A stretch of DNA of 64,000 nt from an uncultured bacterium. GTDB taxonomy: Bacteria > Actinomycetota > Acidimicrobiia > Spongiisociales > UBA5794. Shown piece by piece: positions 13,358 to 53,356 of the stretch (the first letter of the stretch is position 1; each line of letters starts with the position of its first letter). The notes under the pieces are model-generated. The model was not told the DNA's origin and ran no database searches. It saw nothing but the letters and a program-made list of their open reading frames with translations. Position numbers and translations under genes: made by a program. The stretch is taken from NCBI GenBank assembly GCA_963801165.1, contig CAWDDT010000004.1:64001-128000 (forward strand), in the 5' to 3' direction.

Positions 13358-14440
13358 CTAGTCGGATCCCTGTATCCACTTTCGGAGCGACTCAACCGAT
13401 CGTGCCAGGAGCCGTGACACGTGCATCTGCGAGATCCCGACTCGCTCCGCTATCTCGGCCTGGCTGAGGTCTTCGTAGAACCGAAGATATAGGATCCTCT
13501 GCTCCCGCTCTGGGAGTTGATCCATAACCAACGACAGATCGGACCACTCTGGTGCCATGTCGAGGCGTGCGTCGTGGGATGGCAAGACGTCGCGGAGGGC
13601 ACGCGCATCCTCGTCGCCTCTCGGGGCATCGAGTGAGGTCGCGGAGAACGACTTGCGTGCCAGGAGCGCCTGGCCCACTTCACCGGGGTCGGCGTCGATA
13701 TGCTCGGCAAGCTCGTCGAGAGTGGGCTCGCGCCCCTCAGATTGCTCCAGTTGCTCGGCGGCGAGTTTGGCCTCGAGGCCGAGCTCCTGCAAGCTGCGGG
13801 GAACCCTTAGTGACCAGCCCGAGTCACGCAAGTACCGTTTCAGCTCACCGTTGATGGTACGGGCCGCAAAGGTTGTGAACCTGACTCCCCGGTCGGGGTC
13901 GAAGCGGTCGATCGCCTTGATCAGGCCTACTGCGGCTACCTGCCCCAGCTCGTCCCGCTTCAGGCTCGGCCCGGCGAATCTGCGTGCCAGGGAGTAGGCA
14001 AACGACTCGTAGCGACGTATCAGCTCGGCTCGTGCCGGAGTATCCCCCGAGGAAGCCCTGGCAAATAGATCTGATTCCCCGGTGCCTGCAGTGAATGTGT
14101 AAGGGTGATCGAGGGTGAATACTGCTTGGCCGGGCTCGACGAACCAGGTGGATGCCAATGTCTCCAACAGTTCCTCGGCGAGGGGGTCGAGCGACTCCGC
14201 GATGCCATCGCTGCTGGCGGCTACGCGGATCCCGGTGCCGTTGCGCACCACCTCCAGGGTTACCGGAGCGTCGACGTCGATGGCCACCGCCATAACCAGC
14301 TCGTTGACGAGGACCATCAAATCCGAGCGGTCCCTGGCGCGCAGATCCCCAACCATGTCTCTGAGGGCGCGTCGGGCGGCGCGTGCGGCGCTTGCAGTAG
14401 GGAGCTCGAAGCGAGCGGTGTGCTCTCCTCCTCCGGTCAC
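13358..14440 (-). CDS. SigB/SigF family RNA polymerase sigma factor with an N-terminal degenerate RsbW-like domain
   Basis: Sigma core: QVAAVGLIKAIDRFDPDRGVRFTTFA..ELKRYLRD..LRVPR, RFYEDLSQAEIAERVGISQMHVSRLL. The N-terminal ~110 aa (SAARAARRALR..LVNELV..LETLASTW) are RsbW-like. Confidence 0.88.
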   Translation of the reverse strand: MTGGGEHTARFELPTASAARAARRALRDMVGDLRARDRSDLMVLVNELVMAVAIDVDAPVTLEVVRNGTGIRVAASSDGIAESLDPLAEELLETLASTWFVEPGQAVFTLDHPYTFTAGTGESDLFARASSGDTPARAELIRRYESFAYSLARRFAGPSLKRDELGQVAAVGLIKAIDRFDPDRGVRFTTFAARTINGELKRYLRDSGWSLRVPRSLQELGLEAKLAAEQLEQSEGREPTLDELAEHIDADPGEVGQALLARKSFSATSLDAPRGDEDARALRDVLPSHDARLDMAPEWSDLSLVMDQLPEREQRILYLRFYEDLSQAEIAERVGISQMHVSRLLARSVESLRKWIQGSD

Positions 14441-14763
14441 GCCGAATCGGAGAGGGCCGAGAAATCGTCGACAACGGCGAACACCTGGGCCATGTCTGTG
14501 AGGCTCAACAGCCGTTGTACCACCGCGCTGGGGGAGATCAGAGCAACAGGTTCGGCCGTCTGGTTGAGCTGGAACAGCGCACGTAAGCCGCTCGAGTCGA
14601 TGAATCGGACGCCGGAGAGGTCTATCGCTAGATTCCCGTCGACCTCGGCGCTGGATTCGAGGAGGCGGGGCGCGGTGGCCATGTCGAGATCCCCGCTGAC
14701 AGAGACCCTCGTCCAGATACCGTGCTTGTCTACGGCAATGTCGATTGGCAGCTCTTCTGGCAT
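14437..14763 (-). CDS. STAS domain anti-sigma factor antagonist (RsbV-like)
   Basis: VSGDLDMATAPRL, IDLSGVRFIDSSGL (phosphorylatable Ser), VQRLLSLT. Confidence 0.9.
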   Translation of the reverse strand: MPEELPIDIAVDKHGIWTRVSVSGDLDMATAPRLLESSAEVDGNLAIDLSGVRFIDSSGLRALFQLNQTAEPVALISPSAVVQRLLSLTDMAQVFAVVDDFSALSDSA

Positions 14764-14942
14764 ATGGGCGAGGCTCCAGTCGGCGACCGAGGGATACATG
14801 GGCGCGTCGCTTGGAGGTCCGGGCACCCTCTGCGCAATGCGCCCGCTGAGTATAGAAGGACTGGCCTCAGTCCGATCGACGCGGCGCGACCATGCTGGGC
14901 CGGTTTCGAAACAGAAGTGGGGCCGTGCAGATAGGATTGGTC

Positions 14943-16544
14943 ATGTCGGTGGTTGTAGAGATAGGGAATGCGATAACTCGGCAAGCGTTTTCACACCTAG
15001 AGGTGCGTTACGAGTCGCTTCGTGCGCTCGCCATCGATCTGGCCGCGGCAACATCGGTTGACGAAGTCACGGCGGCGATTGCATCAACGGCGGCAAGAGC
15101 ACTTGATGCGCTTGTGTGTGGCGTTCTGGTGGTGCGCCAGGGCGTCGACGGTGTCCATTCGGTGATCAAGGAAGCCGATCGCGATCTGAAGGCAGTTCTG
15201 GATGCCTGCCCGGGGCTACTGGACTCGATGTGGAAAGCGGTCGACCAGGAGATGCCCGCGCGACTCGACCTCGATGTGTGCGAAACCGCACGCGTCGGGT
15301 CGGCCGAGGTGTACCCGATCCCACTGGAGCCGCGCCGTGTGGCAGTTTTGGTGCTGGCCTGGAGCGGGCGCGCCCTTTCCTCATCCGACATTGGAGCTGT
15401 TGTCGGGTTGTGCCGGGCCGCACTAGTCCGGGCCTGGGCCACCCGCCGGGTTCGTGAACTGTCCCCCATCATGGATGCGCTCTTCGAACAAGCGGCGATC
15501 GGATTGGCGTTCCTGGACACTGATTTGCGCTATCAACATGTGAACCACCGTCTCGCTGCTATCCACCAGCGGCCGGTCTCGGAGCATCTCGGCCGGACGC
15601 TGCGGGAGATGACGCCCCACATGGCAGACACCGTTGAGCCCTTGTTGCGCAAGGTGATCGAAACTGGTGAAGCTACCGGCAAGGTCGAAGTGACGGGCCC
15701 GGCGCCGGACGGGAATGGCTCGGCGATCTTCGAAGTCGCCTACCTGCCCGTTGAGGTCGACGGTGAGGTTGTTGGCGTTGCCGCTGTTGTCGATGATGTC
15801 ACCGAGGACCGGTTGCGGCTCGAGGACCTGCGGCACCGCTATGAGTTCGAGCGAGACGTCGCTGCCCGGCTGCAACGCGGGCTGACCCCACGTGACTTGC
15901 ACCAGCCGGAGGGCTACGAGGTGGCGACCAGTTATGCGGTCGGCTCTGCGGGCCTTGGGATCGGTGGAGACTGGTACGACGTCATCGAGCTCCGCGACGG
16001 GTGTGTGGCTTTTGTCATGGGGGATGTTGTCGGGCACGGTCTCGACTCGGCGCTGGCCATGGTGAGGCTCCGGCACACGCTGGCCGGTCTCGCCCATTCC
16101 GGGCTCGATCCAGTCGAGGTCCTCGGCAAGCTCGACGAATATGCTACCGACACCGGTGATCAGTTCGTAGCCACCCTTGTGTATGGCTTGCTCGAGCCGG
16201 AAGGGGGTGGGATCACGTTGAGCTCGGCGGGTCACCTACCCCCATTGCTGATCACCACGGCGCACGTCGACCCTATCCACGCCGCGGGCACGCCGGTCGG
16301 GGTGACGGCAGGAAAGCGCACCCCGACTAACTTCTCGATGGATCACGGAGACACGCTCCTGCTATACACCGACGGGGTGATCGAAGAGCGTGGAGAGTCG
16401 GTGGCGATAGGTCTGCAACGACTCATGGATCTGGCTAGTAAGCCGTTCTCGTCGGCCCAGGAGTTGGCGGACAGGATCTCTGCCGAGGCGGCCCGACACA
16501 ACAACTCGGATGACGCCGCCGTAATGGTGCTGCGCCGATTCTGA
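14943..16544 (+). CDS. SpoIIE/RsbU-like PP2C phosphatase with GAF-like and PAS domains
   Basis: PAS: FEQAAIGLAFLDTDLRYQHVN. PP2C: GGDWYD, GDVVGHG, SAGHLPP, YTDG, DDAA. Start uncertain (14892 or 14943). Confidence 0.9.
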   Translation: MSVVVEIGNAITRQAFSHLEVRYESLRALAIDLAAATSVDEVTAAIASTAARALDALVCGVLVVRQGVDGVHSVIKEADRDLKAVLDACPGLLDSMWKAVDQEMPARLDLDVCETARVGSAEVYPIPLEPRRVAVLVLAWSGRALSSSDIGAVVGLCRAALVRAWATRRVRELSPIMDALFEQAAIGLAFLDTDLRYQHVNHRLAAIHQRPVSEHLGRTLREMTPHMADTVEPLLRKVIETGEATGKVEVTGPAPDGNGSAIFEVAYLPVEVDGEVVGVAAVVDDVTEDRLRLEDLRHRYEFERDVAARLQRGLTPRDLHQPEGYEVATSYAVGSAGLGIGGDWYDVIELRDGCVAFVMGDVVGHGLDSALAMVRLRHTLAGLAHSGLDPVEVLGKLDEYATDTGDQFVATLVYGLLEPEGGGITLSSAGHLPPLLITTAHVDPIHAAGTPVGVTAGKRTPTNFSMDHGDTLLLYTDGVIEERGESVAIGLQRLMDLASKPFSSAQELADRISAEAARHNNSDDAAVMVLRRF

Positions 16545-27124: not shown

Positions 27125-28024
27125 ATGCACCGACTGCGCTTTGGGATCAAGACGACGCCGATGAATACGAGCTACGAGGACATACTCAGGGTATGGCTCG
27201 AGGCAGACCGAGAAGAGCTCATCAGCGATGCCTGGCTCTGGGACCACTTTCTGCCGCTTGCGCCGGATCCGGCTGTTCCCGTTCATGAAGGATGGACCCT
27301 GTTGGCGGCTCTCGCCGCACAGACCAGAAGGCTGCGTCTCGGGCTGCTCGTGACCAGCAACGCAGTGCGCCCACCCGCAGTGTTGGCGAAGATGGCGGCC
27401 ACCGTCGACGTGATCTCGGGGGGTCGGCTGATCCTCGGCATCGGTGTCGGGGGGACCCGCCAGCCCGCCGGAGTGGCCAACCCGGCCACCCGCGAGCATG
27501 CGGCCTATGGGATACCTCTCCCGTCACCCGCCGACGGCATCGCCCGGCTCGACGAGGCCTGTACCCTCATCCGTCGCCTCTGGCAGGAGGACGGCTTCGA
27601 TTACACCGGGACGCACTATCAGCTGCAGGGGGCGACGTGTCGACCCCGACCTGTCCAGCAGCCCGTGCCACCGCTGCTGCTGGGCGGCTGGGGAGACAAG
27701 ACGCTTGGCGTTGTCGCCCGTCACGCCGACATGTGGAACATCCCCGGCCCGCCACACGGTGAGATCTCTTTCCTTATCGAGCGCAACGAGGCGCTGGACG
27801 CCGCCTGCCGGGAGATCGGGCGCAACCCGGACGAGATCGTGCGGTCCACCCAGATGATCGCCGACTACGACGATCCCGGCGCCGTGCGTAATTTCGTTTC
27901 CGAGCTTGCAGACGCCGGGTTCTCGCACTTCGTCGTCGCGCTGCGCCCTCCCTATCCCGAGGGCGCCGCCCGATGGCTTGTCGACGAGGTCATCGCACCC
28001 GTTACAGCCCGACCCGCTGGTTGA
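27125..28024 (+). CDS. LLM class (probably F420-dependent) oxidoreductase
   Basis: WLWDHF, EGWTLLAALAAQT, RPPAVLAKMAATVDVISGGRLILGIG, ARHADMWN. Confidence 0.9.
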   Translation: MHRLRFGIKTTPMNTSYEDILRVWLEADREELISDAWLWDHFLPLAPDPAVPVHEGWTLLAALAAQTRRLRLGLLVTSNAVRPPAVLAKMAATVDVISGGRLILGIGVGGTRQPAGVANPATREHAAYGIPLPSPADGIARLDEACTLIRRLWQEDGFDYTGTHYQLQGATCRPRPVQQPVPPLLLGGWGDKTLGVVARHADMWNIPGPPHGEISFLIERNEALDAACREIGRNPDEIVRSTQMIADYDDPGAVRNFVSELADAGFSHFVVALRPPYPEGAARWLVDEVIAPVTARPAG

Positions 28025-29459
28025 ACTGGTCGATCAGCTTGTCGATGGGGTCGACCAACGCCTGGATGTTGGTCCAGTAGTCCGGGTCGTACCACTGACG
28101 CTGGATCTCGTCGTAGGTCTTGCCTTGCTGCTCGACCCAGGTGTAGTACTTGAGGTTGTGGATTCGCTTGCGCTCGTAGTAACCGAGTTCCTGGGTGTTG
28201 GCGGTGCTCTGACCCATCAGATGGCGGTGATAGGCACCGGCTGCATCCGAGGCGGTGAACTCGCCACGCTCCTGACGCAGCTCGTTGATCCGTGACCCGT
28301 ACATCTCCATCGAGTCGGTGCCGAGCGTCATGACGATGTCGTTGCCGGTGAGCTCGTACCACTTGGCGAATTTGATTGCCATCAGCATGTTGGCGACACC
28401 GGAGATACCGAGAAGCGGCAGCTTCTCGATGAAGTCCGCCGACACACCCTGCTTGGCCAGGTACTCCTGACCGGCCGGCTCGTTGAAGAGACGGATCAAG
28501 CTCATCGGCGACTCGTCGTCAATGGCCATCGCCATGTCCGTGTTCCTTATGTTGTGGACCCACGGGATGTGCTTGTCACCGATGCCTTCGATGCGGTGCT
28601 CGCCGAAGCCGTTGAGGATCATCGTCGGGCACTCGGTCGCCTCGCCGGCGACGATCTTCGAAGTGGGGTACACCTGCTTCAAGTAATCGCCCGAGCCGAT
28701 GGTCCCGGCAGAGCCCGTAGTCAGGGTGACGCCGGCGAACCGGTCGCCCGCACCCATCACCTGCTCCAACACTTCGACCATGGCGGGGCCGGTCACCGAG
28801 TAGTGCCACAGGTAGTTGCCGAACTCGTCGAACTGATTGAAGATCACCAGGTCCTGGCCGGACGCCCGCAGCTCGTTGCACTTGTCGAAGATCTCCTTGA
28901 CGTTGGACTCTGAGCCCGGTGTCTTGATGATCTCGCCGGCGACGTTCTCCAGCCATTGAAAGCGCTCCTTGCTCATCCCCTCGGGGAGGATGGCGATGGA
29001 TTCGCAGCCAAGCAGGTTGGAGTCGTAGGCACCGCCGCGGCAGTAGTTGCCGGTAGACGGCCAGACGGCCTTCTGCGTGGCGGGGTCGAACTGACCGGTG
29101 ACGAGACGCGGGGCGAGGCAGCCGAACGCAGCGCCGACCTTGTGGGCGCCGGTGGGGAACCACTTGCCCTCGAGCATGATGATCCGGGCGTCAACACCGC
29201 TGATCTCCTTGGGGATCTCCAGGTAATTGACCTTCCCAAAACCTCCACCCGACGCCGTCGGCTCGTTGTGCCAGGTGATGCGGAACAGGTTCAGCGGGTT
29301 GAGATCCCACAGTCCGACGTCGCTGAGCTGATTCTTGATGGAATCCGGGATCAGGGCCGGGTTGCGCATCTGCTTGAAAGTAGGAATCCGAATCGATCGA
29401 TCCCGCGCCACCCTGGCTGCGGATTCGAGCACCGACTCGTTGACCGTCAGATCGATCAT
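28002..29459 (-). CDS. Fold-type II PLP-dependent enzyme (large, cysteine-synthase-like, uncharacterised)
   Basis: PTGAHKVG (PLP Lys), PSTGNY, NQF, TGSAGT, IEGIG. Confidence 0.85.
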   Translation of the reverse strand: MIDLTVNESVLESAARVARDRSIRIPTFKQMRNPALIPDSIKNQLSDVGLWDLNPLNLFRITWHNEPTASGGGFGKVNYLEIPKEISGVDARIIMLEGKWFPTGAHKVGAAFGCLAPRLVTGQFDPATQKAVWPSTGNYCRGGAYDSNLLGCESIAILPEGMSKERFQWLENVAGEIIKTPGSESNVKEIFDKCNELRASGQDLVIFNQFDEFGNYLWHYSVTGPAMVEVLEQVMGAGDRFAGVTLTTGSAGTIGSGDYLKQVYPTSKIVAGEATECPTMILNGFGEHRIEGIGDKHIPWVHNIRNTDMAMAIDDESPMSLIRLFNEPAGQEYLAKQGVSADFIEKLPLLGISGVANMLMAIKFAKWYELTGNDIVMTLGTDSMEMYGSRINELRQERGEFTASDAAGAYHRHLMGQSTANTQELGYYERKRIHNLKYYTWVEQQGKTYDEIQRQWYDPDYWTNIQALVDPIDKLIDQFNQRVGL

Positions 29460-30721
29460 TAGTTGGTTCCCTTCTGTATCGCTTCTTTGAGTGCTTCGAG
29501 TGTCGGGTCGACAACCATCGGTGTCGTTCCAGCGGCGGCCACTGCCTTCATTGCCGAGGCAACGTCCTTGAGGCCGGAACCGGTGGACAGCACGACGACC
29601 TCTTCGTTCTCCTTGACCAGACCGGTAGCAACCGCCTTGATCAGGCCGGCGTATGCGGTCGCTCCGGCAGGCTCGGCGAACACGCCGGAGCCGCGTGCCA
29701 GCAGCGGCATCGCCGCCAGGATCTCGCCGTCGCTAACCCGGACGTAGGCGCCGTTGGTCTCGGTGACTGCTCGCATCGCCTTGATACGGTCCCGGGGGAG
29801 GTCGGCGCTAATCGAGTCGGCGATCGTATCTGCGGAGATGGGTGCCTTGGTCAGCACATCCTCACCGGACTCGAACGCCTGCACCATGTAGTCGCTGCCT
29901 GCGGCCTGGATGCCGTAGATCCTGGGGGAGTAGTCGATCCAGCCGAGGGCCAGAGCGTCCTTCATGGCCTTATGCACGCCGCCGATGATGGAACCGTCGC
30001 CGACGCTGACGAAGATTGCATCGGGCGGACTCCAGCCGAGGTCTTCGAGGATCTCCCAGCCTGCGGTCTTCTTGCCTTCGGTCATGTACGGGTTGTAGCC
30101 GGTGTTGCGGTTGTACCAGCCGTACTCAGCAGCCGCCAGCATGCACAGCTCGAAAGCGTCGCCGTAGTTGCCGTTGACCAGCGCCACCGTCGACCCGTAC
30201 GTCAACAGTTGGGCGATCTTGGCCTCAGGCGCTGTCTTGGGGACGAAGATGACGTTCTTCTGCCCGACGCTCGCCGAGATACCGGAAAGTGCCGCTGCGG
30301 CATTGCCGGTGCTGGCGGTGGTGACCACCTCGGCGCCGACCTCGCGTGCCTTGACGACGGCCATGGCTGAAGCCCGGTCCTTGAGCGACGCTGTCGGCTG
30401 TCGCCCCTCGTCCTTGACCCACACCCTTGCTATGCCGAGGTCGGCAGCAAGGGGCCTGGCGTCGTACATCGGGGTGCAGCCAACCGTGAGCGGCGGCACC
30501 TCAGCGTCCGGGGCAACCGGCATCACCGGCTTGTATCGCCACATCGTGCGGTCCGGGTTGGCGGCGAGGTCTTCCTTGGTCCATTCGGACGAGATCGTGT
30601 CGTAGTCGTACTGGACGTCGAGGATGCCTTCATTGCCGTGGTCGGTGCAGACGTACCCGGCGTAGTCCGCCGGGTACGTCTTGCCGCAGATCACACAGGT
30701 GAGCCCGGTGACATGGTTCAT
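29459..30721 (-). CDS. Threonine synthase-like fold-type II PLP enzyme with an N-terminal zinc ribbon
   Basis: CVIC..CTDH, PTASLKDR, ASTGNA, EGKKT, VGDG, EPAGA, TGSGLKD; ATG at 30721. Confidence 0.85.
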   Translation of the reverse strand: MNHVTGLTCVICGKTYPADYAGYVCTDHGNEGILDVQYDYDTISSEWTKEDLAANPDRTMWRYKPVMPVAPDAEVPPLTVGCTPMYDARPLAADLGIARVWVKDEGRQPTASLKDRASAMAVVKAREVGAEVVTTASTGNAAAALSGISASVGQKNVIFVPKTAPEAKIAQLLTYGSTVALVNGNYGDAFELCMLAAAEYGWYNRNTGYNPYMTEGKKTAGWEILEDLGWSPPDAIFVSVGDGSIIGGVHKAMKDALALGWIDYSPRIYGIQAAGSDYMVQAFESGEDVLTKAPISADTIADSISADLPRDRIKAMRAVTETNGAYVRVSDGEILAAMPLLARGSGVFAEPAGATAYAGLIKAVATGLVKENEEVVVLSTGSGLKDVASAMKAVAAAGTTPMVVDPTLEALKEAIQKGTN

Positions 30722-31659
30722 CGAACGATCCTGGTGCCGGTCTCGCCGGCAACGGCGCGCTCGATGTTCTCGGGGTTGGTGATGAGAGCTTCCTTGCCGC
30801 CGCCTTCGAGGAACTTGACCACGGCCCTCATCTTCGGGGCCATCGACCCCTCGGCGAAGTGGCCGCCCTCTTCGAGGTATTGCTTGACCTCGGCGAGAGT
30901 GAGCTTGTCCATCCACTCCTCATTTGGCTTGCCGTAGTTGAGGGCGACCTTCTCGACTGCGGTCGAGATCAGCAGCATGTCTGCGTCGATATCGAGAGCC
31001 AGCAGTGCAGAAGCCAGGTCCTTGTCGATGACGGCAGCGACACCTTGCAGGTCGCCGTTCTCGGTGGTGACGACGGGAATGCCGCCACCGCCGACACAGA
31101 TCACAACGACACCGGAATCGATCAGCTGTCGTATGACATCGATCTCAACGATGCGTTGTGGCTGTGGGGAAGCGACGACCCGACGCCAACCACGTCCGGC
31201 GTCTTCCTTGATCGACCAGCCTTCTTCGTCCCTGCGCCGCTTGGCTTCGTCCTCCTCGAGGAAGGTGCCGATCGGCTTCGACGGGTTGATCATGGCGGGG
31301 TCTTCCGCGCTCACCTCGACCTGGGTGACCACCGTCGCCACGGGCTTGTTGATACCCATCGCGCGGAAGTCGTTGATCAGGTTCTGCTGCAACGCATAGC
31401 CGATTGCTCCCTGCGTGTCGGCTCCGGCGACGTCCATCGGGATCTCGTGAAGCTCATGGCGCGAGAGCTCCGAGCGCCGCATGATGAACCCGACCTGTGG
31501 TCCATTTCCGTGCGAGATGGCTACGTCCCATCCGGCCTTGACCAGTTCGGCGATGTGCTGGTCGGTGACCGCAGCTGCCGCATACTGGTCGGCGACCGAC
31601 TGATGCGCCTTGTCGGCGATCAGCGAATTGCCACCAATGGCGATGACGACTTTAGACAT
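30718..31659 (-). CDS. arcC: Carbamate kinase
   Basis: AIGGNSL, HGNGPQVG, PSKPIG, GWRRVVASP, GGGGIP, AVIDKD, GSMAPK. Confidence 0.95.
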   Translation of the reverse strand: MSKVVIAIGGNSLIADKAHQSVADQYAAAAVTDQHIAELVKAGWDVAISHGNGPQVGFIMRRSELSRHELHEIPMDVAGADTQGAIGYALQQNLINDFRAMGINKPVATVVTQVEVSAEDPAMINPSKPIGTFLEEDEAKRRRDEEGWSIKEDAGRGWRRVVASPQPQRIVEIDVIRQLIDSGVVVICVGGGGIPVVTTENGDLQGVAAVIDKDLASALLALDIDADMLLISTAVEKVALNYGKPNEEWMDKLTLAEVKQYLEEGGHFAEGSMAPKMRAVVKFLEGGGKEALITNPENIERAVAGETGTRIVR

Positions 31660-31662
31660 CCC

Positions 31663-32613
31663 TCACTCCCAGACTCCGAGGACGGAAGACAGGAGAGCCA
31701 TACGCATGACGACGCCGTTGTAGGCCTCTTGCCAGTAACGCGCGTGACGGGAATCGTCGACCTCAGGAAGTAGCTCGTCACGACGGGGGAGCGAGTGCAG
31801 GATGATCGAGCTGCCCTTGGCCTTCGACATCACCTCTGAGGTCACCTGGTACTTGGCGTCGGTGTGGGCGTATACCTCTTGCTTTTCCTGACGAGCCTTT
31901 GTGTAGTCGGGCTGGACCACCGGCTCCATGTAGATGACGTCTACCTCGTCGATCACGTCGTCGATGTGGTCGACGATGCGGTAGTTGGTGCCCTTCTCAT
32001 CGAGTTCGGCGAGGAACTCAGGAAGCGGTGACATCTCTTCAGGGGCCAGGATGAGCATCTCGGCATCGAACTGCGACAGGGCGTAGCCCAGTGAGTGCAT
32101 GGTGCGCATGCGATGATCGCCGACGGCCAGGATGGTCTTGCCGTCGACCGATCCCATCTCCTTGGTGATGGTGTAGAGGTCGGTGAGGATCTGAGTCGGG
32201 TGCTCGCCCCAGCCGTCGCCACCATTGATGATCGGGATCGATGCCCATTTGGCCGCCTCGTGCGGGGCGCCTTGCTCGAAGTGACGCATGACGATGACGT
32301 CGCCGTAGAACTCGAGCATGTGGACCGTGTCCTTGATGGACTCCTGATAGAAGTCGCCCGCCCGCGTCATCTTGGCATCTGAGAAACCTGTGACATGGCC
32401 GCCGAGGCGGTGCATAGCGGCTTCATGGGCGAGACGGGTACGTGTGGACGGCTGATAGAAAGCCGTGACGAGAGTCTTGTGAGCGAGGAGGTCTGTGTTG
32501 CGACGCTCCCGAGCGATCGGCTCGACCCGGTCGGCGATCTCGAAAAGATGCATGAATTCGTTGCGTTCGAAATCCTTCAGCGAAAGGATGTCGCGTCCCG
32601 CAAAACTGCGCAT
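31663..32613 (-). CDS. ATCase-like carbamoyltransferase with altered substrate-binding motifs
   Basis: PSTRT, MRH, HPTQ and HSLPR are present. The KGE and RxQ aspartate-binding motifs are replaced (YQES; YMEPVVQP). Confidence 0.85.
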   Translation of the reverse strand: MRSFAGRDILSLKDFERNEFMHLFEIADRVEPIARERRNTDLLAHKTLVTAFYQPSTRTRLAHEAAMHRLGGHVTGFSDAKMTRAGDFYQESIKDTVHMLEFYGDVIVMRHFEQGAPHEAAKWASIPIINGGDGWGEHPTQILTDLYTITKEMGSVDGKTILAVGDHRMRTMHSLGYALSQFDAEMLILAPEEMSPLPEFLAELDEKGTNYRIVDHIDDVIDEVDVIYMEPVVQPDYTKARQEKQEVYAHTDAKYQVTSEVMSKAKGSSIILHSLPRRDELLPEVDDSRHARYWQEAYNGVVMRMALLSSVLGVWE

Positions 32614-32670
32614 ATGTGTGCCCTCCTTCAAGAGCTCGTGGTTTGGGTCAGATTTCGACCCTTGTCGAAT

Positions 32671-32681
32671 TGGTCATACCA
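32671..32681. promoter_or_regulatory. Candidate GntR operator TGGTCATACCA in the divergent promoter region
   Basis: TGGT-N3-ACCA palindrome between the catabolic operon and gntR. Confidence 0.5.
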
Positions 32682-32722
32682 TCGTACAATATGATCACAT
32701 TACCGGCTAGTCTAATTTCGAA

Positions 32723-33451
32723 ATGATCACCAGAAGCCCATCGCTAACTGAACAGGTGAAGGCCCACCTAAAAGAGCAGATTGTCAACGACGAGTTTGTC
32801 GACGGCCGGATCCCACCCGAGGCCACACTCGCCGAAGAGCTCGGGGTCAGCCGCACCACTATCCGCGATGCGCTCGGCAAGCTCGAGCACGAAGGTGCCA
32901 TCTACCGCAAGCAGGGCGCCGGCACCTTCGTCAACGAGGCCGGTCTCCAGATCAAGTCACGGCTCGAGGAGATCTGGTCTTACGAGCAGGTGCTACGTGA
33001 CCACGGATACACGCCTTCGGTCGAGGTCCTCTCCGCCGAGATCCTCCCCGTCAATGAGGACACCGCAGAGGCGCTCGGTCTCAGTGACGGTGATCGGGTG
33101 TTCGTCATCGAGAAGCTCTTTCTCGAGGATTCGACGCCCGTGGTCCTGGCGAGAAACCGGATCCCGGCGGGCCTGATCGACCTGGCGCCGCCCGGCAAGG
33201 TCGAGCTTCCGGTATATGAGTATCTGGAGGAGATCAGCAACCGCCGCCTCAGCTACTACCTCTCTGAGATCGTGCCGGTGGCATTCAATGCCGACCAGGC
33301 CGGGAAGCTCGGGGTTGCCCCGGGCACAGTGGGTCTCTCGTTTGTTGAGGTCGGCTTCGACCAGAACAACGAGCCGGTCGTGCATGCCACCTCGTATTTC
33401 CGCGACGATTTGCTCCGCTTCCGTCTGATCAGACGGAAGACCGGTGCATGA
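32723..33451 (+). CDS. GntR family regulator (HutC subfamily, UTRA domain)
   Basis: IPPEATLAEELGVSRTTIRDAL..QGAGTFV, plus a UTRA-like C-terminus. Confidence 0.92.
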   Translation: MITRSPSLTEQVKAHLKEQIVNDEFVDGRIPPEATLAEELGVSRTTIRDALGKLEHEGAIYRKQGAGTFVNEAGLQIKSRLEEIWSYEQVLRDHGYTPSVEVLSAEILPVNEDTAEALGLSDGDRVFVIEKLFLEDSTPVVLARNRIPAGLIDLAPPGKVELPVYEYLEEISNRRLSYYLSEIVPVAFNADQAGKLGVAPGTVGLSFVEVGFDQNNEPVVHATSYFRDDLLRFRLIRRKTGA

Positions 33452-33465
33452 AGAACAGAAGAGAA

Positions 33466-33506
33466 AACCCAGACATAGAACCCAGACATAGAACCCAGAC
33501 ATAGAA
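33466..33506 (+). repeat. 13-bp tandem repeat (AACCCAGACATAG)x3 directly before the RBS
   Basis: Three perfect copies at 33466-33504, then AAGGAG. Confidence 0.92.
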
Positions 33507-33516
33507 GGAGCAGTTG

Positions 33517-34491
33517 ATGCAGACCCATCTGCACGGTCGCGACATGATCACGACCCAGGAGTGGACCAAGGACGAGCTGGACACGGTCCTCGACATCGCC
33601 CTCGACCTGAAGCGCCGTCGGGCCCTCGGTGAGCAGCACGCCCTCTTGGACAACAAGGTGCTGGCCATGTTGTTCTTCTTCTCCAGCACCAGGACCCGGG
33701 CCAGCTTCGAGGCGGGCATGGCCCAGCTCGGTGGGCACGCCATGTTCCTCGACAGCACGAGCACCCAGATCGGCCACGGCGACACGTGGAAGGAGATCGG
33801 TGAGATTCTCGGCCGCTACAACGACGGCATCGCAATCCGCCAGGTCGACTGGGGTATCGGCAACAAGTACATCCGTGCGGTAGCCGAGGCGAGCCGGGTG
33901 CCCGTGCTCAACATGCAGTGCGACGTGTACCACCCGCACCAGGCGCTGGCCGATCTGCTGACGATCATCGAGCAGAAGGGCGATCCCTCGAAGCTGACGG
34001 TCAACATGAGCTATGCGTATGCGGCCAGCTATCAGAAGCCGATAAGCGTGCCACAGAGCCTGATCCTGCTGATGACCCGCTACGGCGCCAACGTCCGTTT
34101 GACCCGGCCGCCCGAGTTCAAGCTCATGCCTGAGATCGTTGCCCAGGCCGAGGAGAACGCCAAGAAGGCGCACGGCAGCTTCGAGATCGTCGAGGATTTC
34201 GAGGAGGGCATGCGTGGCGCCGACGTCGTCTACGCCAAGGCGTGGGGCTCGATGCTGACCACGTCGGATCTCGAGGAGTCGGCGAAGATCTCGGCGCAGT
34301 ACAAGGACTGGATCGTCGACCCCCGCCGTATGGAGATGGCCGACGAGGACGCCATCTACATGCACCCGCTGCCCGCCGACCGCAACATCGAGGTTGCCGA
34401 CGAGGTCATCGACGGTCGCTGGAGCCGGGTCTTCGACCAGGCCGAGAACCGTCTCCACGCCCAGAAAGCTGTCATGGCGCTGACGATGTAG
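33517..34491 (+). CDS. YgeW-like (knotted) carbamoyltransferase
   Basis: SSTRTR, HPHQALAD, HPLPAD, AENRLH. The segment SYAYAASYQKPISVPQSLILLMTRYG resembles YgeW as I recall it (TWAYSPSYGKPLSVPQ). It lacks the OTC DxxxSMG motif (AKAWGSM instead). Confidence 0.82.
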   Translation: MQTHLHGRDMITTQEWTKDELDTVLDIALDLKRRRALGEQHALLDNKVLAMLFFFSSTRTRASFEAGMAQLGGHAMFLDSTSTQIGHGDTWKEIGEILGRYNDGIAIRQVDWGIGNKYIRAVAEASRVPVLNMQCDVYHPHQALADLLTIIEQKGDPSKLTVNMSYAYAASYQKPISVPQSLILLMTRYGANVRLTRPPEFKLMPEIVAQAEENAKKAHGSFEIVEDFEEGMRGADVVYAKAWGSMLTTSDLEESAKISAQYKDWIVDPRRMEMADEDAIYMHPLPADRNIEVADEVIDGRWSRVFDQAENRLHAQKAVMALTM

Positions 34492-34499
34492 CCGCTTTG

Positions 34500-34535
34500 G
34501 CGTCGCAAACCGGAACATGTTCCGGTTTGCGACGC
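34500..34535. repeat. Perfect 36-bp palindrome (REP-like or terminator)
   Basis: GCGTCGCAAACCGGAACATGTTCCGGTTTGCGACGC equals its own reverse complement. Confidence 0.9.
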
Positions 34536-34612
34536 TAGAAGCCTCTCCTCGCGTTGCGGCGGGTCCCCTTGACCCGCTGCGCAACTCCAGGCTCGCTGCC
34601 AGTATGAGGGCT

Positions 34613-35731
34613 ATGAGAACCTGCGACTTCCTCGTCATCGGAGGAGGCATAGCCGGGGCCTCGGCCGCCTACGAGCTGGCGGCATACGGCAAAACCGTCC
34701 TGGTCGAACGAGAGCGCATTGCCGGATACCACACCACTGGTCGCTCAGCCGCCCTGTTCACCGAGTCATGGGAGCACGGCATTGTCCGCAGCCTCACCAC
34801 CGCCAGCCGGTCCTTTCTAGAGGACCCGCCTGCGGGTTTCACCGACCACCCGCTACTTTCGCCGCTGCACTTCCTGGTGATCGGTCGCGAGGATCAGCGC
34901 GAGGCGGTTGCAGCGTTGGCGGACGACACGGTCGCCGCCGGCACGGTGCAGGTGCTGGACGGCAACGGTGCCGTATCGGTCTGTCCGGTCCTGCGGCCGG
35001 GCTATGTGGTGGCGGCGATCCTGGAACCCGGCTCGATGGAAATCGACGTCAACGAACTCCATCAAGGGTTCGTGCGGGGTCTGCGCCGGCGGGGAGGCGA
35101 GGTCCGGCTCAATGCAGAAGTCAGTGAGATCCGCCAGGTCGGGGATGGTTGGGTCGTAGCCGCCGGGGAGTCGACGATCTCTGCCGGCGTCGTCGTCAAC
35201 GCCGCAGGAGCGTGGGCGGACGCGGTTGCTGAGCTGGCAGGTGTCGGACCGATCGGGCTGGTGCCCTATCGGAGGACCGCATTCGTGTTCCCGGCGCCGA
35301 TCGATACCCATGGACTGCCGATGGTCGTCGATGTCGATCAGCAGTTTTACTTCAAGCCGGAGAGCGGTCGATTCATGGGCTCGCTGGCGGAGGAGACTCC
35401 GATGGAGCCACACGACGTGCGACCGGAGGAGATCGACGTTGCGCTGGCGATCGACCGGATCAAGGCCGCGACGACCCTGGATATCCGTCACGTTTCCCGG
35501 ACGTGGGCAGGGCTTCGTTCGTTCGTCGCCGATCGCCTTCCCGTCGTGGGCATGGAGCCCGACCATCCGGGTTTCTTCTGGCTGGCGGGTCAAGGCGGCT
35601 TCGGGATCATGACCTCGCCGGCAATGGCACGCCTCGCCGCCGGGCTCATCGCCGAGGGTCGGGCTTCGACCGAGCTGGTAGCGGCGGGAGTAGACCCATC
35701 CCAGCTCGGTCCGGGCCGGTTCCGGAGCTGA
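34613..35731 (+). CDS. FAD-dependent oxidoreductase (D-amino acid oxidase/glycine oxidase family)
   Basis: VIGGGIAG, TGRSAA, VNAAGAW, WAGLR, AGQGGFGI; start 34604 or 34613. Confidence 0.9.
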   Translation: MRTCDFLVIGGGIAGASAAYELAAYGKTVLVERERIAGYHTTGRSAALFTESWEHGIVRSLTTASRSFLEDPPAGFTDHPLLSPLHFLVIGREDQREAVAALADDTVAAGTVQVLDGNGAVSVCPVLRPGYVVAAILEPGSMEIDVNELHQGFVRGLRRRGGEVRLNAEVSEIRQVGDGWVVAAGESTISAGVVVNAAGAWADAVAELAGVGPIGLVPYRRTAFVFPAPIDTHGLPMVVDVDQQFYFKPESGRFMGSLAEETPMEPHDVRPEEIDVALAIDRIKAATTLDIRHVSRTWAGLRSFVADRLPVVGMEPDHPGFFWLAGQGGFGIMTSPAMARLAAGLIAEGRASTELVAAGVDPSQLGPGRFRS

Positions 35732-50533: not shown

Positions 50534-51364
50534 GTGTCGGAACCTCAACAACCGACACGAGCTGCCGACAGGTCGGGTATGAAGCCGGTAATTGCAGTAT
50601 CAGCGCAAACCGCCGTTGCCAACAATGAGTTCTACGGCGAGCAGAGGCTGACCAGCCTCTACGAGTTGTATGTGCGTGCCCTCGAGTCCGCGGGTGTGCT
50701 CCCGGTGGTGCTGGCTCACTGCGACCCCGCCGACGTCCCCGAGCTGCTCGACCGGTTCGATGGCCTGCTGATCCCCGGCGGTGGTGACGTCGATCCGACG
50801 GCATACGGCGAGGAGCCTGCGACGGAGACGCTGTACGGGGTCCATCCCCACGCAGACGCCTTCGAGATCGCCCTGGTTCTCGAAGCAGCCAGACGGCACC
50901 TGCCCGTGCTCGGTATCTGCCGCGGTCTCCAGATCGTCAACGTGGCCTTTGGCGGAACGCTGCATCAGGATCTGCCCGAGCATCCCAGGGATCTTATGGG
51001 CCGGGCATTCGCCGGCCACTACCGGACCAACGTCGTCCCCGGAACCCGTCTTCACCGGGTGGTCGACCGTGAGGAGATCGTGGTCAACTCCCTGCATCAC
51101 CAGGGTGTCAAGGAGCTGGGCGACGGGCTGCGGATCGCGGCGACGGCGGGTGACGGCGTCGTCGAGTCGATCGAGGCTTCCGATCCGAACTGGGACATGG
51201 TTGCGGTCCAATGGCACCCCGAATGTCTCCGCAAGGACGACGCCAGGGCACTGTTCGACTGGCTGGGTGACGCGGCCGCGCTCCGGATGACCCGGGTCGA
51301 TGTCCGGCTGCTCACCGAGAGCGTCGAGGCCACCGCGATGAAGCAGTCCGCTGCCGCATCCTGA
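50534..51364 (+). CDS. PuuD-like class I glutamine amidotransferase (peptidase C26)
   Basis: PGGGDVDP, GICRG, NSLHHQ, QWHPE; start may be 50579. Confidence 0.9.
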   Translation: MSEPQQPTRAADRSGMKPVIAVSAQTAVANNEFYGEQRLTSLYELYVRALESAGVLPVVLAHCDPADVPELLDRFDGLLIPGGGDVDPTAYGEEPATETLYGVHPHADAFEIALVLEAARRHLPVLGICRGLQIVNVAFGGTLHQDLPEHPRDLMGRAFAGHYRTNVVPGTRLHRVVDREEIVVNSLHHQGVKELGDGLRIAATAGDGVVESIEASDPNWDMVAVQWHPECLRKDDARALFDWLGDAAALRMTRVDVRLLTESVEATAMKQSAAAS

Positions 51365-51388
51365 GCCGTAGCCGCTAACTTGATCGAG

Positions 51389-52756
51389 ATGAGCACTCTC
51401 TTGATCAAGCATGCGCACGTTGTGGCAACGATGGACGGCGACCGGCAGGAGATCGCCGATGGGGGGATGCTGATCGTCGACGGTGTGATTACCGCCGTCG
51501 CTCCTACCGCCGATCTACCCGGTGACGCCGACGAGGTTCTCGATCTGAGCGGGCACGTCGTCCTGCCCGGCTTCATCAACACCCACCACCACTTCTACCA
51601 GACGCTGACCCGTGCGGTCCCCGGGGCCCAGGACGTCGGGTTGTTCGACTGGCTGCGCACCCTTTACCCGATCTGGGCGCGGATGACTGCAGAGCACATC
51701 GAGGTGTCCACCAAACTGGCGCTGGCCGAGCTGGCATTGTCGGGATGCACCACCGCATTCGACCATCTCTATCTGTTCCCCAACGACTCGCGTCTCGACG
51801 ACGAGATCGAGGCGGCGGCCGGGGTGGGGCTCCGGCTTCATGCGTCGCGGGGATCTATGTCGCTGGGAGAGAGCGACGGCGGCCTCCCGCCAGATTCCGT
51901 GGTGGAGACCGACACGGCGATCCTGGCGGACACGCAACGGCTGATCGAGACCTACCACGACGCCAGTCCCGTCGCGATGACACGCATCGTCGTCGCTCCC
52001 TGCTCGCCGTTCAGCGTCACCACCGACATCATGCGCGAGTCTGCGGCGCTGGCTCGTTCGTTCGGCGTGACGATGCACACCCACCTCGCAGAAACCATGG
52101 ACGAGGAGGATTTCTGCGTCTCGACCTACGGGCGCCGTCCCGTCGAGCTGATGGAGGATCTCGACTGGATGGGCGACGACGTCTGGTTTGCCCACAGCGT
52201 GTTCATCAACGACGACGAGATAGGCAGGATGGCAGCGGCGCAAACCGGTGTGGCTCATTGCCCCTCGTCGAACATGCGCCTCGCCTCGGGGATCGCTCCG
52301 CTGCGCAAGTACCTCGCCGCCGGGGTTCCGACCGGTCTCGGTGTCGACGGTTCGGCCAGCAACGACGGCAGCCACCTCCTCGGTGAGGCCCGGCAGGCAA
52401 TGCTGCTGGCCAGGCTCGATGCCGCCCCGAATCAATCAGGGGGCAGCTTGCTGTCTGCCCGAACCGCTCTCGAGCTGGCCACCAGGGGAGGCGCCTCCGT
52501 GCTGCGGCGTCCCGAACTCGGGTCGCTCGAGCCCGGCAAGGCGGGCGACTTCATCGCCATCGACCTGAACCGCCTCGAGTATGCCGGGGCCCTCCACGAT
52601 CCAGTCGCCGCCGTGATGCTGGCGGCTCCGGTGAACGTGGATTTCAACTATGTGGGCGGCAAGCCGGTCGTCCAGAAGGGCAACCTGGTGACCCTCGAAC
52701 TCGAGCCGCTGATCGAACGGCACAACCGCCTCGCCGGCGAACTGTTCCAGCCGTAA
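51389..52756 (+). CDS. 8-oxoguanine deaminase-like amidohydrolase
   Basis: NTHHHFYQTLTR, PCSPFS, HTHLAE, HCPSSNMRL, GVDGSASND (PCSPFS and SASND motifs, as I recall for this group). Confidence 0.88.
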   Translation: MSTLLIKHAHVVATMDGDRQEIADGGMLIVDGVITAVAPTADLPGDADEVLDLSGHVVLPGFINTHHHFYQTLTRAVPGAQDVGLFDWLRTLYPIWARMTAEHIEVSTKLALAELALSGCTTAFDHLYLFPNDSRLDDEIEAAAGVGLRLHASRGSMSLGESDGGLPPDSVVETDTAILADTQRLIETYHDASPVAMTRIVVAPCSPFSVTTDIMRESAALARSFGVTMHTHLAETMDEEDFCVSTYGRRPVELMEDLDWMGDDVWFAHSVFINDDEIGRMAAAQTGVAHCPSSNMRLASGIAPLRKYLAAGVPTGLGVDGSASNDGSHLLGEARQAMLLARLDAAPNQSGGSLLSARTALELATRGGASVLRRPELGSLEPGKAGDFIAIDLNRLEYAGALHDPVAAVMLAAPVNVDFNYVGGKPVVQKGNLVTLELEPLIERHNRLAGELFQP

Positions 52757-52819
52757 GGAATCGCGAGCGCTTGCGGCCTGACAGAATGAGCGACAAATCG
52801 CGACCAACCCGGAGCCACC

Positions 52820-53308: not shown

Positions 53309-53356
53309 ATCGCACCGCCGTGTGCGGTTTACAATCTGTAAACCAGGAGGTGTCGG

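Follow-up and report, generated by a model that had tools for sequence, protein, structure and literature searches.

What is gained by a bacterium that keeps two different transcarbamylases beside a carbamate kinase (CK) and two pyridoxal phosphate (PLP) enzymes? These enzymes are encoded in a six-gene cluster of an uncultured bacterium (GTDB lineage Actinomycetota; Acidimicrobiia; Spongiisociales; UBA5794; assembly GCA_963801165.1), within the 64,000-nucleotide stretch analysed here (contig CAWDDT010000004.1, termed C4, positions 64,001 to 128,000; hereafter the window). On the minus strand, the cluster encodes an aspartate transcarbamylase (ATCase)-like enzyme (ATCl), CK, a PLP enzyme resembling threonine synthase (the ThrC-like enzyme) and a PLP enzyme of 485 residues (PLP485). 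Divergently, it encodes a GntR/UTRA regulator and a second transcarbamylase, of the YgeW type (OTCl). An earlier interpretation made from the DNA letters and their translations (the sequence-only reading) had taken these genes for a candidate undescribed, ATP-conserving pathway in which both ureido groups of a purine-derived compound may be released as carbamoyl phosphate.

On comparative evidence, the core of that proposal, namely a purine-derived di-ureido substrate, two phosphorolytic steps and the conservation of ATP, appears to be right. We estimate a probability of roughly 60% that the six genes constitute a regulated module for the lower steps in a variant form of the reductive uric acid (2,8-dioxopurine) pathway, with a yield of up to two ATP. 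The evidence consists of gene content, homology, active-site residues, synteny and co-occurrence. The word "undescribed" does not stand, as the module would be a variant of the lower half of a pathway that has been reported (PMC12507026; bioRxiv 10.1101/2025.04.24.650524). We did not find the two-transcarbamylase form or the pair of PLP enzymes described in the literature searched, supplements excepted; the neighbourhood tables of the sequence similarity network in PMC12507026 might list PALP neighbours beyond YgeX.

In the proposed route, a selenium (Se)-type xanthine dehydrogenase (XDH)-like protein, an SsnA-like protein, YgfK and a D-hydantoinase would turn urate into 2,3-diureidopropionate. 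OTCl would phosphorolyse one ureido group and ATCl the other, a step for which E. coli uses the hydrolase YgeY, and CK would convert both carbamoyl phosphates (with ADP, to ATP and carbamate), so that up to two ATP rather than one could be gained per urate. What results, C3 amino acids with free amino groups (2,3-diaminopropionate and/or a mono-ureido compound such as albizziin), would be turned into pyruvate and ammonia. Fold-type II PLP enzymes would carry this out, with the ThrC-like enzyme most likely in the place of the lyase YgeX and PLP485 performing a beta-elimination or replacement, or a stereochemical step that the E. coli pathway lacks. The GntR/UTRA protein is likely to be a repressor of both divergent units and would act until an intermediate binds.

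Gene order and purine-pathway neighbours

The minus-strand operon and the divergent regulator and transcarbamylase named in the sequence-only reading were confirmed by open reading frame (ORF) listing, domain scans and direct reading of the gene junctions (Table 1). The four minus-strand genes are joined by TGAgggATG (a 3-nt gap), ATGA (an overlap, which joins CK with the next gene) and TAATG (a 1-nt overlap), and these junctions indicate that the four are translationally coupled. The start of the ThrC-like gene was placed at the ATG rather than at the beginning of a longer GTG-initiated ORF that reaches to 30916, because family models begin at residue 66 of that frame. Direct reading and an inverted-repeat search found two palindromes in the divergent region, which we take as a putative promoter/operator. 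Among the ORFs scanned with Pfam and NCBIfam at 24.5-39.5 kb, no arginine deiminase, PyrI, PyrC or M20 hydrolase was present, in keeping with the claim that the cluster is free of a deiminase, PyrI/PyrC and a YgeY-like hydrolase.

All six genes stand in this order in 10 of 20 relatives' loci, and the order is partly kept in five more, the GntR gene being syntenic in 10 of the 20, and the arrangement also recurs in Chloroflexota and other phyla; it is therefore not due to chance. GC content across the window is even (0.60-0.68), so nothing suggests a recent insertion. Two flanking genes were considered as members of the unit and rejected, each having homologues in 0 of the 20 relatives' loci. 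One encodes a DAO-family FAD oxidoreductase and starts 25 nt past OTCl; the presence of a D-amino-acid-oxidase-type enzyme beside a pathway with D-configured intermediates is suggestive and may be a coincidence. The other encodes an F420-dependent LLM-class oxidoreductase and is convergent with PLP485, overlapping its 3' end by 23 nt. F420 "luciferase-family" enzymes stand in for YgfK in urate clusters of Chloroflexota (PMC12507026); the gene seen here is syntenic in none of the 20 loci, and this genome has a full YgfK.

To follow the unit through other genomes, PLP485 was chosen as its most distinctive protein. A scan of one genome per GTDB species gave at least 597 confirmed PLP485 relatives among at least 599 candidate stretches, and the best 80 of the at least 597 (62-84% identity) come from Chloroflexota, Bacillota, SAR324, Terriglobia, Desulfobacterota, Synergistota, Atribacterota, Opitutales and Thorarchaeota. 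The locus survey comprised 100 loci, 80 of them from other phyla (12 of these 80 being shorter than 8 kb), and its counts rest on tblastn hits because crude longest-ORF/GC3 calling sometimes got the start or strand wrong. Representatives of the clustered neighbours of PLP485 relatives matched Se-dependent XDH (TIGR03311, 1334 bits against a cut-off of 830), SsnA (NF005540, 656 against 444), YgeY (TIGR03526, 573 against 321), D-hydantoinase (TIGR02033, 535 against 393) and the diaminopropionate ammonia-lyase YgeX (NF006058, 493 against 276), with YgfK just missed (TIGR03315, 805 against 835); CK, transcarbamylases and a Bmp/PnrA-type ABC transporter were also recurrent. This gene set is that of the reductive urate, or 2,8-dioxopurine, pathway published in 2025 (PMC12507026; bioRxiv 10.1101/2025.04.24.650524; PMC12990295).

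An upper-pathway gene lies within ~10 kb in 43 of the 100 loci, and any transcarbamylase, CK or purine marker in 74. As a rough yardstick, we infer that a gene present about once per genome would fall by chance into a 20-kb stretch of a 4.5-Mb genome in ~0.4% of cases. True YgeW orthologues, 66-72% identical to that of E. coli K-12, adjoin PLP485, with the ThrC-like gene alongside in three loci (L057, L067, L095) and YgeX in the place of the ThrC-like gene in two (L073, L097). The link to purines and urate made in the sequence-only reading is thus supported by urate-pathway neighbours across phyla, in the same order and in this genome. In Anaerolineae loci (L056-L109, for example L062 2630-12117), a Bmp/PnrA-type ABC transporter interrupts the module, and the ThrC-like gene is separated from PLP485 by a GT2 (PgfS/ArnC-like) glycosyltransferase; next come a conserved ~190-aa protein without a family and then membrane proteins and SelB. 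Two loci from metagenome-assembled genomes (MAGs) of Thorarchaeota (L105, L113) contain homologues that share 65% identity with the actinobacterial PLP485; none of their neighbours with a Pfam hit is a purine gene, which points to recent horizontal transfer or mis-binning.

Within the genome of the window, YgfK, D-hydantoinase, CK and YgeX score over their cut-offs, and the XDH-like, SsnA-like and YgeW-like proteins are near matches or variants. A search for hyuA, ssnA, ygfK and ygeY, as suggested by the sequence-only reading, was thereby answered for D-hydantoinase and YgfK, with the SsnA-like protein below its cut-off and no YgeY found. Upstream of the cluster, at a distance of 39-46 kb on the same contig and outside the window, are the genes for the XDH-like protein, the SsnA-like protein and YgfK. 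The short SsnA-like protein matches SsnA positions 57-339, and the same short form is found at 67-77% identity in five relatives (L019, L028, L030, L065, L084), which makes it a real variant rather than a broken gene; its reading frame runs into the start of that of YgfK, which at 1223 aa is unusually long (1032 aa in E. coli). The selD gene contains one in-frame TGA, so the organism probably makes selenocysteine and has selenophosphate for a Se-dependent molybdenum hydroxylase. A deaminase/XDH cluster had been named as the supplier of substrate. The 8-oxoguanine deaminase and PucCDE-like XDH encoded 17-22 kb downstream of the six genes could indeed feed urate, but the decisive genes are those of the XDH-like/SsnA-like/YgfK module upstream. 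A peptidase C26/gamma-glutamyl hydrolase-like gene and a DUF1003 gene accompany the deaminase and the PucCDE-like XDH, forming with them a purine oxidation module of the non-selenium type.

Across the order, YgfK is over cut-off in 30 of 61 genomes. It lies directly beside the module in four relatives (G041, G055, G035, G034), as on contig C39 of G041, where YgfK at 54.8-58.1 kb is followed by ATCl, OTCl, the ThrC-like gene and PLP485 up to 64.4 kb, and on the same contig in many others. Over the 61 genomes, ATCl and full-length YgfK occur together in 25, ATCl without YgfK in nine, YgfK without ATCl in five and neither in 22. Several of the genomes with ATCl only have, beside the module, a shorter protein of ~600-670 aa that matches the N-terminal ~400 residues of YgfK (for example G029:C16:39048-40256, G045:C41:34833-36041 and G059:C1:538366-539571) and that may be a split or alternative reductase.

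Two transcarbamylases and the absence of YgeY

Four transcarbamylase domains were found by domain search in this genome, which is 98% complete and comprises 13 contigs. The housekeeping pair, PyrB (in pyrR-pyrB-pyrC on contig C6) and ArgF, are both encoded on another contig than the cluster and score over cut-off (PyrB 378 bits for TIGR00670 and 305 for NF002032; argF 378 bits). ATCl and OTCl are thus extra, non-canonical paralogues and not the genome's only copies, as the sequence-only reading had anticipated, and the condition that this reading had set for its own refutation is thereby removed.

ATCl passes one ATCase model (TIGR00670, 266 bits against a cut-off of 237) and misses another (NF002032, 241 against 263). 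In a maximum-likelihood (ML) tree of 46 sequences, its clade (14 rows, support 97/98) sits beside the PyrBs. Alignment with E. coli PyrB and with the genome's own PyrB shows that ATCl retains the carbamoyl-phosphate site; S52-T55, R105, H134, Q137 and R167 are all kept. In all six ATCl-clade sequences aligned, from two phyla, the K84 region is altered, TRVQKER has become EPVVQPD and HPLP has become HSLP, so that neither the RxQxER motif of the 240s loop nor the HPLP motif of PyrB is present in ATCl. As the beta-carboxylate of aspartate is bound by R229 and Q231 of that RxQxER motif (PMC4581275), and ATCl has neither residue, aspartate is unlikely to be its substrate. ATCl carries STRT, HPTQ, HSLP and V-Q-P, which is the "pseudo-ATCase 3" row in Table 1 of PMC4016543; the function of these "group 3" enzymes was uncharacterised in that work (Barba et al., 2013). 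The gene context given there for group 3 (a Na+ symporter, asparaginase and HyuC) was not seen near ATCl in the window scans. The same source places a pseudo-ATCase of Nocardioides sp. JS614 beside a YgeW homologue, xdhABC and hyuA. We propose that ATCl is a pseudo-ATCase that would phosphorolyse the ureido group hydrolysed by YgeY in E. coli.

OTCl scores under every NCBIfam cut-off, including those for ornithine transcarbamylase (OTCase; NF001986, 274.5 bits against 306) and acetylornithine transcarbamylase (AOTCase; 245 against 288), and misses both YgeW models (NF005538, 194 against 453; TIGR03316, 180 against 500). The ML tree nevertheless groups the OTCl clade (19 rows, 100/100) with true YgeWs, including that of E. 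coli, at 98/95 and apart from ArgF/ArgI; the tree was built without references for AOTCase, succinylornithine transcarbamylase or putrescine transcarbamylase (PTCase) and does not place OTCl relative to these. Aligned with E. coli YgeW, OTCl has an extended 120s loop and the proline-rich loop by which knotted transcarbamylases are recognised. Five of the six second-substrate residues of YgeW (PMC4581275, Table 1) are kept (Q160, K270, S200, K203, L331), D124 being the one that differs, and Q98, D334 and E344 are kept as well; the corresponding residues of E. coli ArgI at 160, 200, 203 and 270 are L, D, N and D. The KPxSVPQ loop and Q98, Q160, S200, K203 and K270 are conserved in all five aligned OTCl-clade sequences (OTCl included), with Q or H in place of D124. 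Of two sister-group sequences, L107 keeps all five residues and L051 has T at S200, and both have N for D124. OTCl is 325 aa long against 396 aa for YgeW and is without the YgeW insertions, the extra N- and C-terminal helices and the long 240s loop. It also departs from ornithine carbamoyltransferases, with K at the D231 position, KAWGSML for DxxxSMG and HPLP for HCLP. The earlier label "YgeW-like" thus holds both in the tree and at the active site, and we propose that OTCl is a 2,3-diureidopropionate carbamoyltransferase.

Which ureido group each enzyme would take can be suggested from ATCl: its retained R167 and its descent from ATCases point to the alpha-ureido group, which would leave the 3-ureido group to OTCl. 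We leave the order of cleavage open because two 2025 papers disagree on the group cut by YgeW (PMC12990295). YgeW and YqeA, the carbamate kinase of E. coli, make ATP from 2,3-diureidopropionate in vitro (bioRxiv 10.1101/2025.04.24.650524).

The distribution of YgeY bears directly on the second step. A profile search found no YgeY in this genome, and YgeY is over cut-off in none of 61 relatives of the order, the nearest miss being G035 (300 bits against 321.5). A YgeW-type gene is present in 51 of the 100 surveyed loci; 29 of these have ATCl only, 11 have YgeY only, one has both (L083) and 10 have neither. In nine of the last 10 loci the YgeW-type gene lies within 2.5 kb of the locus end, so that its neighbour may simply be cut off. 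Restricting the count to the 80 other-phyla loci leaves 41 with a YgeW-type gene (19 with ATCl only, 11 with YgeY only, one with both, 10 with neither). At the scale of whole genomes, a complete Anaerolineaceae chromosome with both transcarbamylases is without YgeY, and four single-YgeW genomes have it. The near-exclusive occurrence of ATCl and YgeY beside a YgeW-type gene supports phosphorolysis of both ureido groups and fits the earlier idea that the second transcarbamylase stands in YgeY's place. Comparatively, the proposal that ATCl would thereby yield a second carbamoyl phosphate, and with it a second ATP, is well grounded.

The ThrC-like enzyme and PLP485

The ThrC-like enzyme passes one threonine synthase model (TIGR00260, 181 bits against 167) and falls just short of another (NF006050, 298 against 303). 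It has the Lys and Asn-loop of ThrC and bears a Cys-rich N-terminal extension of ~60 aa. The ThrC motif NPxRxEGQ reads NPYMTEGK here, and in all 15 sequences of the ThrC-like clade the Arg is replaced, by Met, Thr, Val, Leu or Ser; STGNT reads STGNA, likewise in 15 of 15. In ThrC this Arg and the Thr of STGNT bind the substrate phosphate, and the Arg is kept in four solved ThrCs and in the genome's own ThrC, whose housekeeping gene lies on contig C7 (288 bits). The ThrC-like enzyme is not the housekeeping threonine synthase.

Its gene is present in 39 of 61 genomes of the same order, always adjoining type-A PLP485. Among the 100 loci, 69 have the ThrC-like gene, three have YgeX and none has both, and of the 15 relatives that have YgfK without YgeX, 13 have the ThrC-like gene and all 15 have PLP485. 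This distribution against YgeX makes the ThrC-like enzyme a reasonable stand-in for it, and we regard the enzyme as a candidate terminal lyase for a C3 diamino acid. Neither PLP enzyme matched the YgeX models (TIGR01747, NF006058) at E <= 0.001. The claim that the two together replace YgeX is borne out in one respect, as the ThrC-like gene and YgeX share no locus, but the genome has a true YgeX, and Bacillota clusters have the canonical set including YgeX together with PLP485. YgeX is over cut-off in 17 of 61 genomes, namely the present one, 13 of its 14 congeners and three others. Here it directly follows DeoD purine-nucleoside phosphorylase and a Bcr/CflA / PunC-like MFS transporter, and makes up with them another small unit linked to purines.

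PLP485 consists of a core of the CysK/beta-substituted-alanine-synthase type with extensions of ~90 aa at both ends. It scores 81 bits with CysK models (cut-off 351) and keeps the CysK motifs AHK, STGNY, GSAGT and HRIEGIG. An AlphaFold2 model (pLDDT 81.7) was compared with the PDB using Foldseek, which returned beta-cyanoalanine synthase, CBS and CysK as the best folds (TM 0.74-0.81, target-normalised, over the ten best chains listed); the matches cover the generic core fold, with none that informs either extension. A PDB sequence search gave family-level relatives only, and a protein-atlas search matched only generic "pyridoxal-phosphate dependent enzyme" clusters. Public names of close homologues, from Acidimicrobiia MAGs, are "cysteine synthase" or "pyridoxal-phosphate dependent enzyme". 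Labels of the cysteine synthase type, like those that follow from the partial passes of threonine synthase models by the ThrC-like enzyme, are probably wrong. Judging by its CysK motifs and core fold, PLP485 should bind an alpha-amino acid and perform a beta-elimination or replacement, and albizziin and diaminopropionate are the only compounds of the pathway that fit such chemistry. A complex prediction for the ThrC-like enzyme with PLP485 scored 0.12 (mark 0.32) and was used neither for nor against any reading.

PLP485 is present in 48 of 61 genomes of the order and is the signature gene of this pathway variant. Its role would be an added function rather than a replacement. We tried it as a replacement for YgeY and rejected it, as the Bacillota genomes have YgeY just upstream and 11 loci hold both; as a replacement for YgeX it was likewise rejected, as YgeX adjoins PLP485 in L073, L086 and L097 and this genome has its own YgeX. 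Type-B loci of the same order (L019, L028, L030) contain no transcarbamylase, and PLP485 is accompanied there by XDH-like, SsnA-like and YgfK-like genes. A carbon-nitrogen hydrolase is present as well in L028 and, together with a Bmp protein, in L019; L030 has an adenosine deaminase. The options for its role are a lyase for a mono-ureido amino acid, a stereochemical step or, less likely, the provision of sulfur or selenium for the hydroxylase cofactor.

A more far-reaching version of the proposal is tentative, and we would place it below even odds: the PLP pair would be new end-of-pathway enzymology and, with the second transcarbamylase giving two ATP per urate, would belong to a route widespread in environmental Acidimicrobiia and Chloroflexota. 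The pair could, for example, combine a urea- or ammonia-eliminating step with a stereo-inverting step on albizziin or diaminopropionate.

The best-surviving alternative, which we consider unlikely, leaves the transcarbamylases and CK as proposed and gives PLP485, with or without the ThrC-like enzyme, an accessory function, either inverting D-configured intermediates so that L-specific enzymes can use them or, by forming or cleaving (seleno)cysteine in the manner of CysK, mobilising sulfur or selenium for the labile Mo-Se/S cofactor of the hydroxylase. The co-occurrence of PLP485 with the complete canonical set in three Bacillota genomes and with a true YgeX in this genome, its place in the type-B loci, a fold and motifs that are those of cysteine synthases and the use of selenium in this genome (SelD with TGA, YqeB) all speak for such a function, and PMC12990295 counts the stereochemistry of the pathway among its open questions. 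Against it stands the translational coupling of PLP485 to CK, the ThrC-like gene and a transcarbamylase; the operon they form comes with a GntR/UTRA regulator of the metabolite-sensing kind. Moreover, no racemase is known in the CysK subgroup, known Moco sulfurases are NifS-like, and hydroxylases of this type are matured in E. coli and C. sporogenes without PLP485.

Coordinates of all features are given in Table 1. It includes an ordinary partner-switching set (a sigma factor, an STAS protein and a PAS-SpoIIE phosphatase) that is unrelated to the cluster.

Table 1. Positions of the six-gene cluster and of other features in the window (plain numbers) and on contigs of the same genome (contig prefix; C4 is the contig of the window); model cut-offs are in parentheses
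Feature	Position	Strand	Remarks
PLP485 (485-aa PLP enzyme)	28002-29459	-	PALP domain only (Pfam/NCBIfam)
ThrC-like PLP enzyme, 420 aa	29459-30721	-	start at ATG 30721
CK	30718-31659	-	TIGR00746 378.1 bits (358.25); NF009007 390.1 bits (266)
ATCl	31663-32613, or to 32631 from a TTG start	-	OTCace_N and OTCace
Divergent intergenic region ATCl/GntR, 109 bp	32614-32722		putative promoter/operator
Palindrome TGGTcatACCA	32671-32681		in the divergent region
Second palindrome	32688-32701		in the divergent region
GntR/HutC-type regulator	32723-33451	+	wHTH PF00392 and UTRA PF07702
OTCl (short YgeW-type transcarbamylase), 325 aa	33514-34491	+	profile scans, tree, alignment
Six-gene cluster	C4:92,002-98,491
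F420-dependent LLM-class oxidoreductase	27125-28024	+	TIGR03560 202 bits (231)
DAO-family FAD oxidoreductase	34517-35731	+	PF01266; weak ThiO/glycine-oxidase similarity
Deaminase/XDH module with accompanying genes	50534-56846	+	non-selenium type
8-oxoguanine deaminase	51380-52756	+	NF006055 661 bits (532)
Three-subunit PucCDE-like XDH	53357-56846	+	pucD 681 bits, under cut-off (784)
Sigma factor	13358-14440
STAS anti-anti-sigma-like protein	14437-14826
PAS-SpoIIE phosphatase	14892-16544
XDH-like fused 2Fe-2S/Mo protein	C4:45,674-48,256		TIGR03311 819 bits (830)
SsnA-like protein, 340 aa	within C4:45.7-52.9 kb		253 bits (444)
YgfK	ends C4:52,861		922 bits (835)
YqeB maturation gene	C4:62,237-62,998		second copy on C5
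SelD	C9:522433-523359		one in-frame TGA
D-hydantoinase	C10		548 bits (393)
True YgeX	C11		beside deoD; 535 bits (276)
YgeX/DeoD/MFS transporter unit	C11:504202-506264

Alternative substrates and comparison with known systems

A second alternative, clearly less probable than the first, is that the module acts on another compound, such as allantoate, N-carbamoyl-beta-amino acids derived from pyrimidines or a citrulline-like amino acid, and that its closeness to urate genes reflects a general "N-heterocycle" neighbourhood. ATCl has an H[ST]LP-type motif as in pseudo-ATCases, one of which, from Rubrobacter xylanophilus (ureidoglycine carbamoyltransferase, UGTCase), phosphorolyses allantoate in vitro (PMC4016543). 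Hydantoinase and dihydropyrimidinase are one family, and the module is not adjacent to the upper genes here. ATCl, however, combines HSLP with VQP in place of the GX[SC] of the Rubrobacter group (PMC4016543), and OTCl retains the substrate residues specific to YgeW. In several phyla, as well as within the order itself, the module and the genes for YgfK, SsnA, Se-XDH and HyuA form one contiguous stretch. Nor was an allantoinase found in this genome, none of its four cyclic-amidohydrolase matches being of the AllB type, and no uricase domain was found in it. Other substrates that we considered (canavanine/O-ureidohomoserine, ectoine, creatinine/N-carbamoylsarcosine, cysteate and pyrimidines) were set aside, as the neighbourhoods give them no support.

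HutC-type GntR regulators and the pairing of a transcarbamylase with CK are typical of catabolism. It is hardly credible that the module instead makes a carbamoylated diamino acid of the albizziin or ureido type for a natural product or osmolyte, with CK supplying carbamoyl phosphate: enzymes of the OTCase branch do carbamoylate diaminopropionate or diaminobutyrate (PMC4581275; keywords viomycin, zwittermicin A, padanamide) and CysK-like enzymes make diaminopropionate precursors (an SbnA match, 36 bits), but the six-gene unit has no NRPS, PKS, ATP-grasp or export gene, its neighbours across phyla are catabolic, and both ATCl and OTCl are without the HDLP motif of diaminopropionate/diaminobutyrate transcarbamylases.

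Several observations weigh against the urate reading itself. In this genome the XDH-like protein falls 11 bits under its cut-off, the SsnA-like protein is short and below cut-off, and the module is 39-46 kb away from the upper genes, with the hydantoinase on another contig. The presence of a true YgeX here and in 13 of 14 congeners means that the PLP pair is not needed merely to replace it, and the three Bacillota genomes, with the order YgeY-YgeW-YqeA-SsnA-YgfK-XDH-HyuA-PLP485-YgeX, have all canonical enzymes and PLP485, so that PLP485 replaces no known step. Eighteen of the 80 other-phyla loci, several of them short, have neither a marker nor the ThrC-like gene, and in the long ones among them, two Thorarchaeota loci included, no Pfam hit of a neighbour points to purines. 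The genomes compared are mutually related rather than independent samples, and the genome sets for ATCl, YgfK and YgeX were compiled by hand from tables. YgeW phosphorolysis is thermodynamically unfavourable (PMC12507026), and two such steps would therefore need a strong pull. All substrates, the cleavage order, the yield of ATP and the part played by each PLP enzyme are inferred.

If the urate reading is right, a second transcarbamylase in place of a hydrolase would bring twice the substrate-level ATP from a pathway that was solved in 2025 and described with one ATP, via YgeW and carbamate kinase, and that has so far been found in obligate or facultative anaerobes (PMC12990295). An energy- and nitrogen-yielding route would then extend to environmental Acidimicrobiia and Chloroflexota, known here from MAGs only, and the "group 3" pseudo-ATCases, unexplained since 2013, would have a testable role. 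The variant also offers a handle on two questions raised in PMC12990295, namely which ureido group is cut first and how stereochemistry is handled, and characterising the PLP pair would in that case also settle both the order of ureido cleavage and the stereochemistry.

The module can be set beside several known systems. Like the arginine and agmatine deiminase pathways, it would phosphorolyse a ureido compound to carbamoyl phosphate and harvest ATP through carbamate kinase; unlike them, it has no deiminase, its two transcarbamylases would act serially on one di-ureido molecule, and ATCl and OTCl are without the OTCase DxxxSMG motif and below the PTCase cut-off. With the Rubrobacter UGTCase and other pseudo-ATCases it shares an ATCase-branch paralogue besides a genuine PyrB, with STRT and HPTQ kept, RxQ lost and an H[ST]LP-type motif, as well as the pairing with CK and a purine-catabolic context. 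It differs in that the motif set of ATCl (HSLP and VQP) is that of group 3 and not of the allantoate-cleaving enzyme, in the absence of an allantoinase, uricase or asparaginase context here, and in a proposed substrate that is a ureido-propionate rather than allantoate. Both PLP enzymes resemble YgeX, ThrC and CysK-type enzymes in their fold-type II core, catalytic Lys and Asn-loop; the ThrC-like enzyme differs from threonine synthase by the missing Arg of NPxRxEGQ, and PLP485 from CysK by its length (485 aa against ~310 aa) and its score far below the family cut-off.

The closest counterpart is the reductive urate pathway of E. coli. A YgeW-type transcarbamylase and carbamate kinase are common to both, the genome has XDH-like, SsnA-like, YgfK, D-hydantoinase, YgeX, YqeB and SelD genes, and the same module is contiguous with pathway genes in other phyla. 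In contrast to E. coli, there is an ATCase-like transcarbamylase and no YgeY, the YgeW homologue is a 325-aa form without the YgeW insertions, and the ThrC-like enzyme and PLP485 have no E. coli counterpart. Where E. coli has the sigma-54 activator YgeV, the regulator here is a GntR/UTRA protein; the upper genes lie apart from the module, whose host belongs to an environmental (aquatic, uncultured) lineage of Acidimicrobiia rather than being a gut anaerobe.

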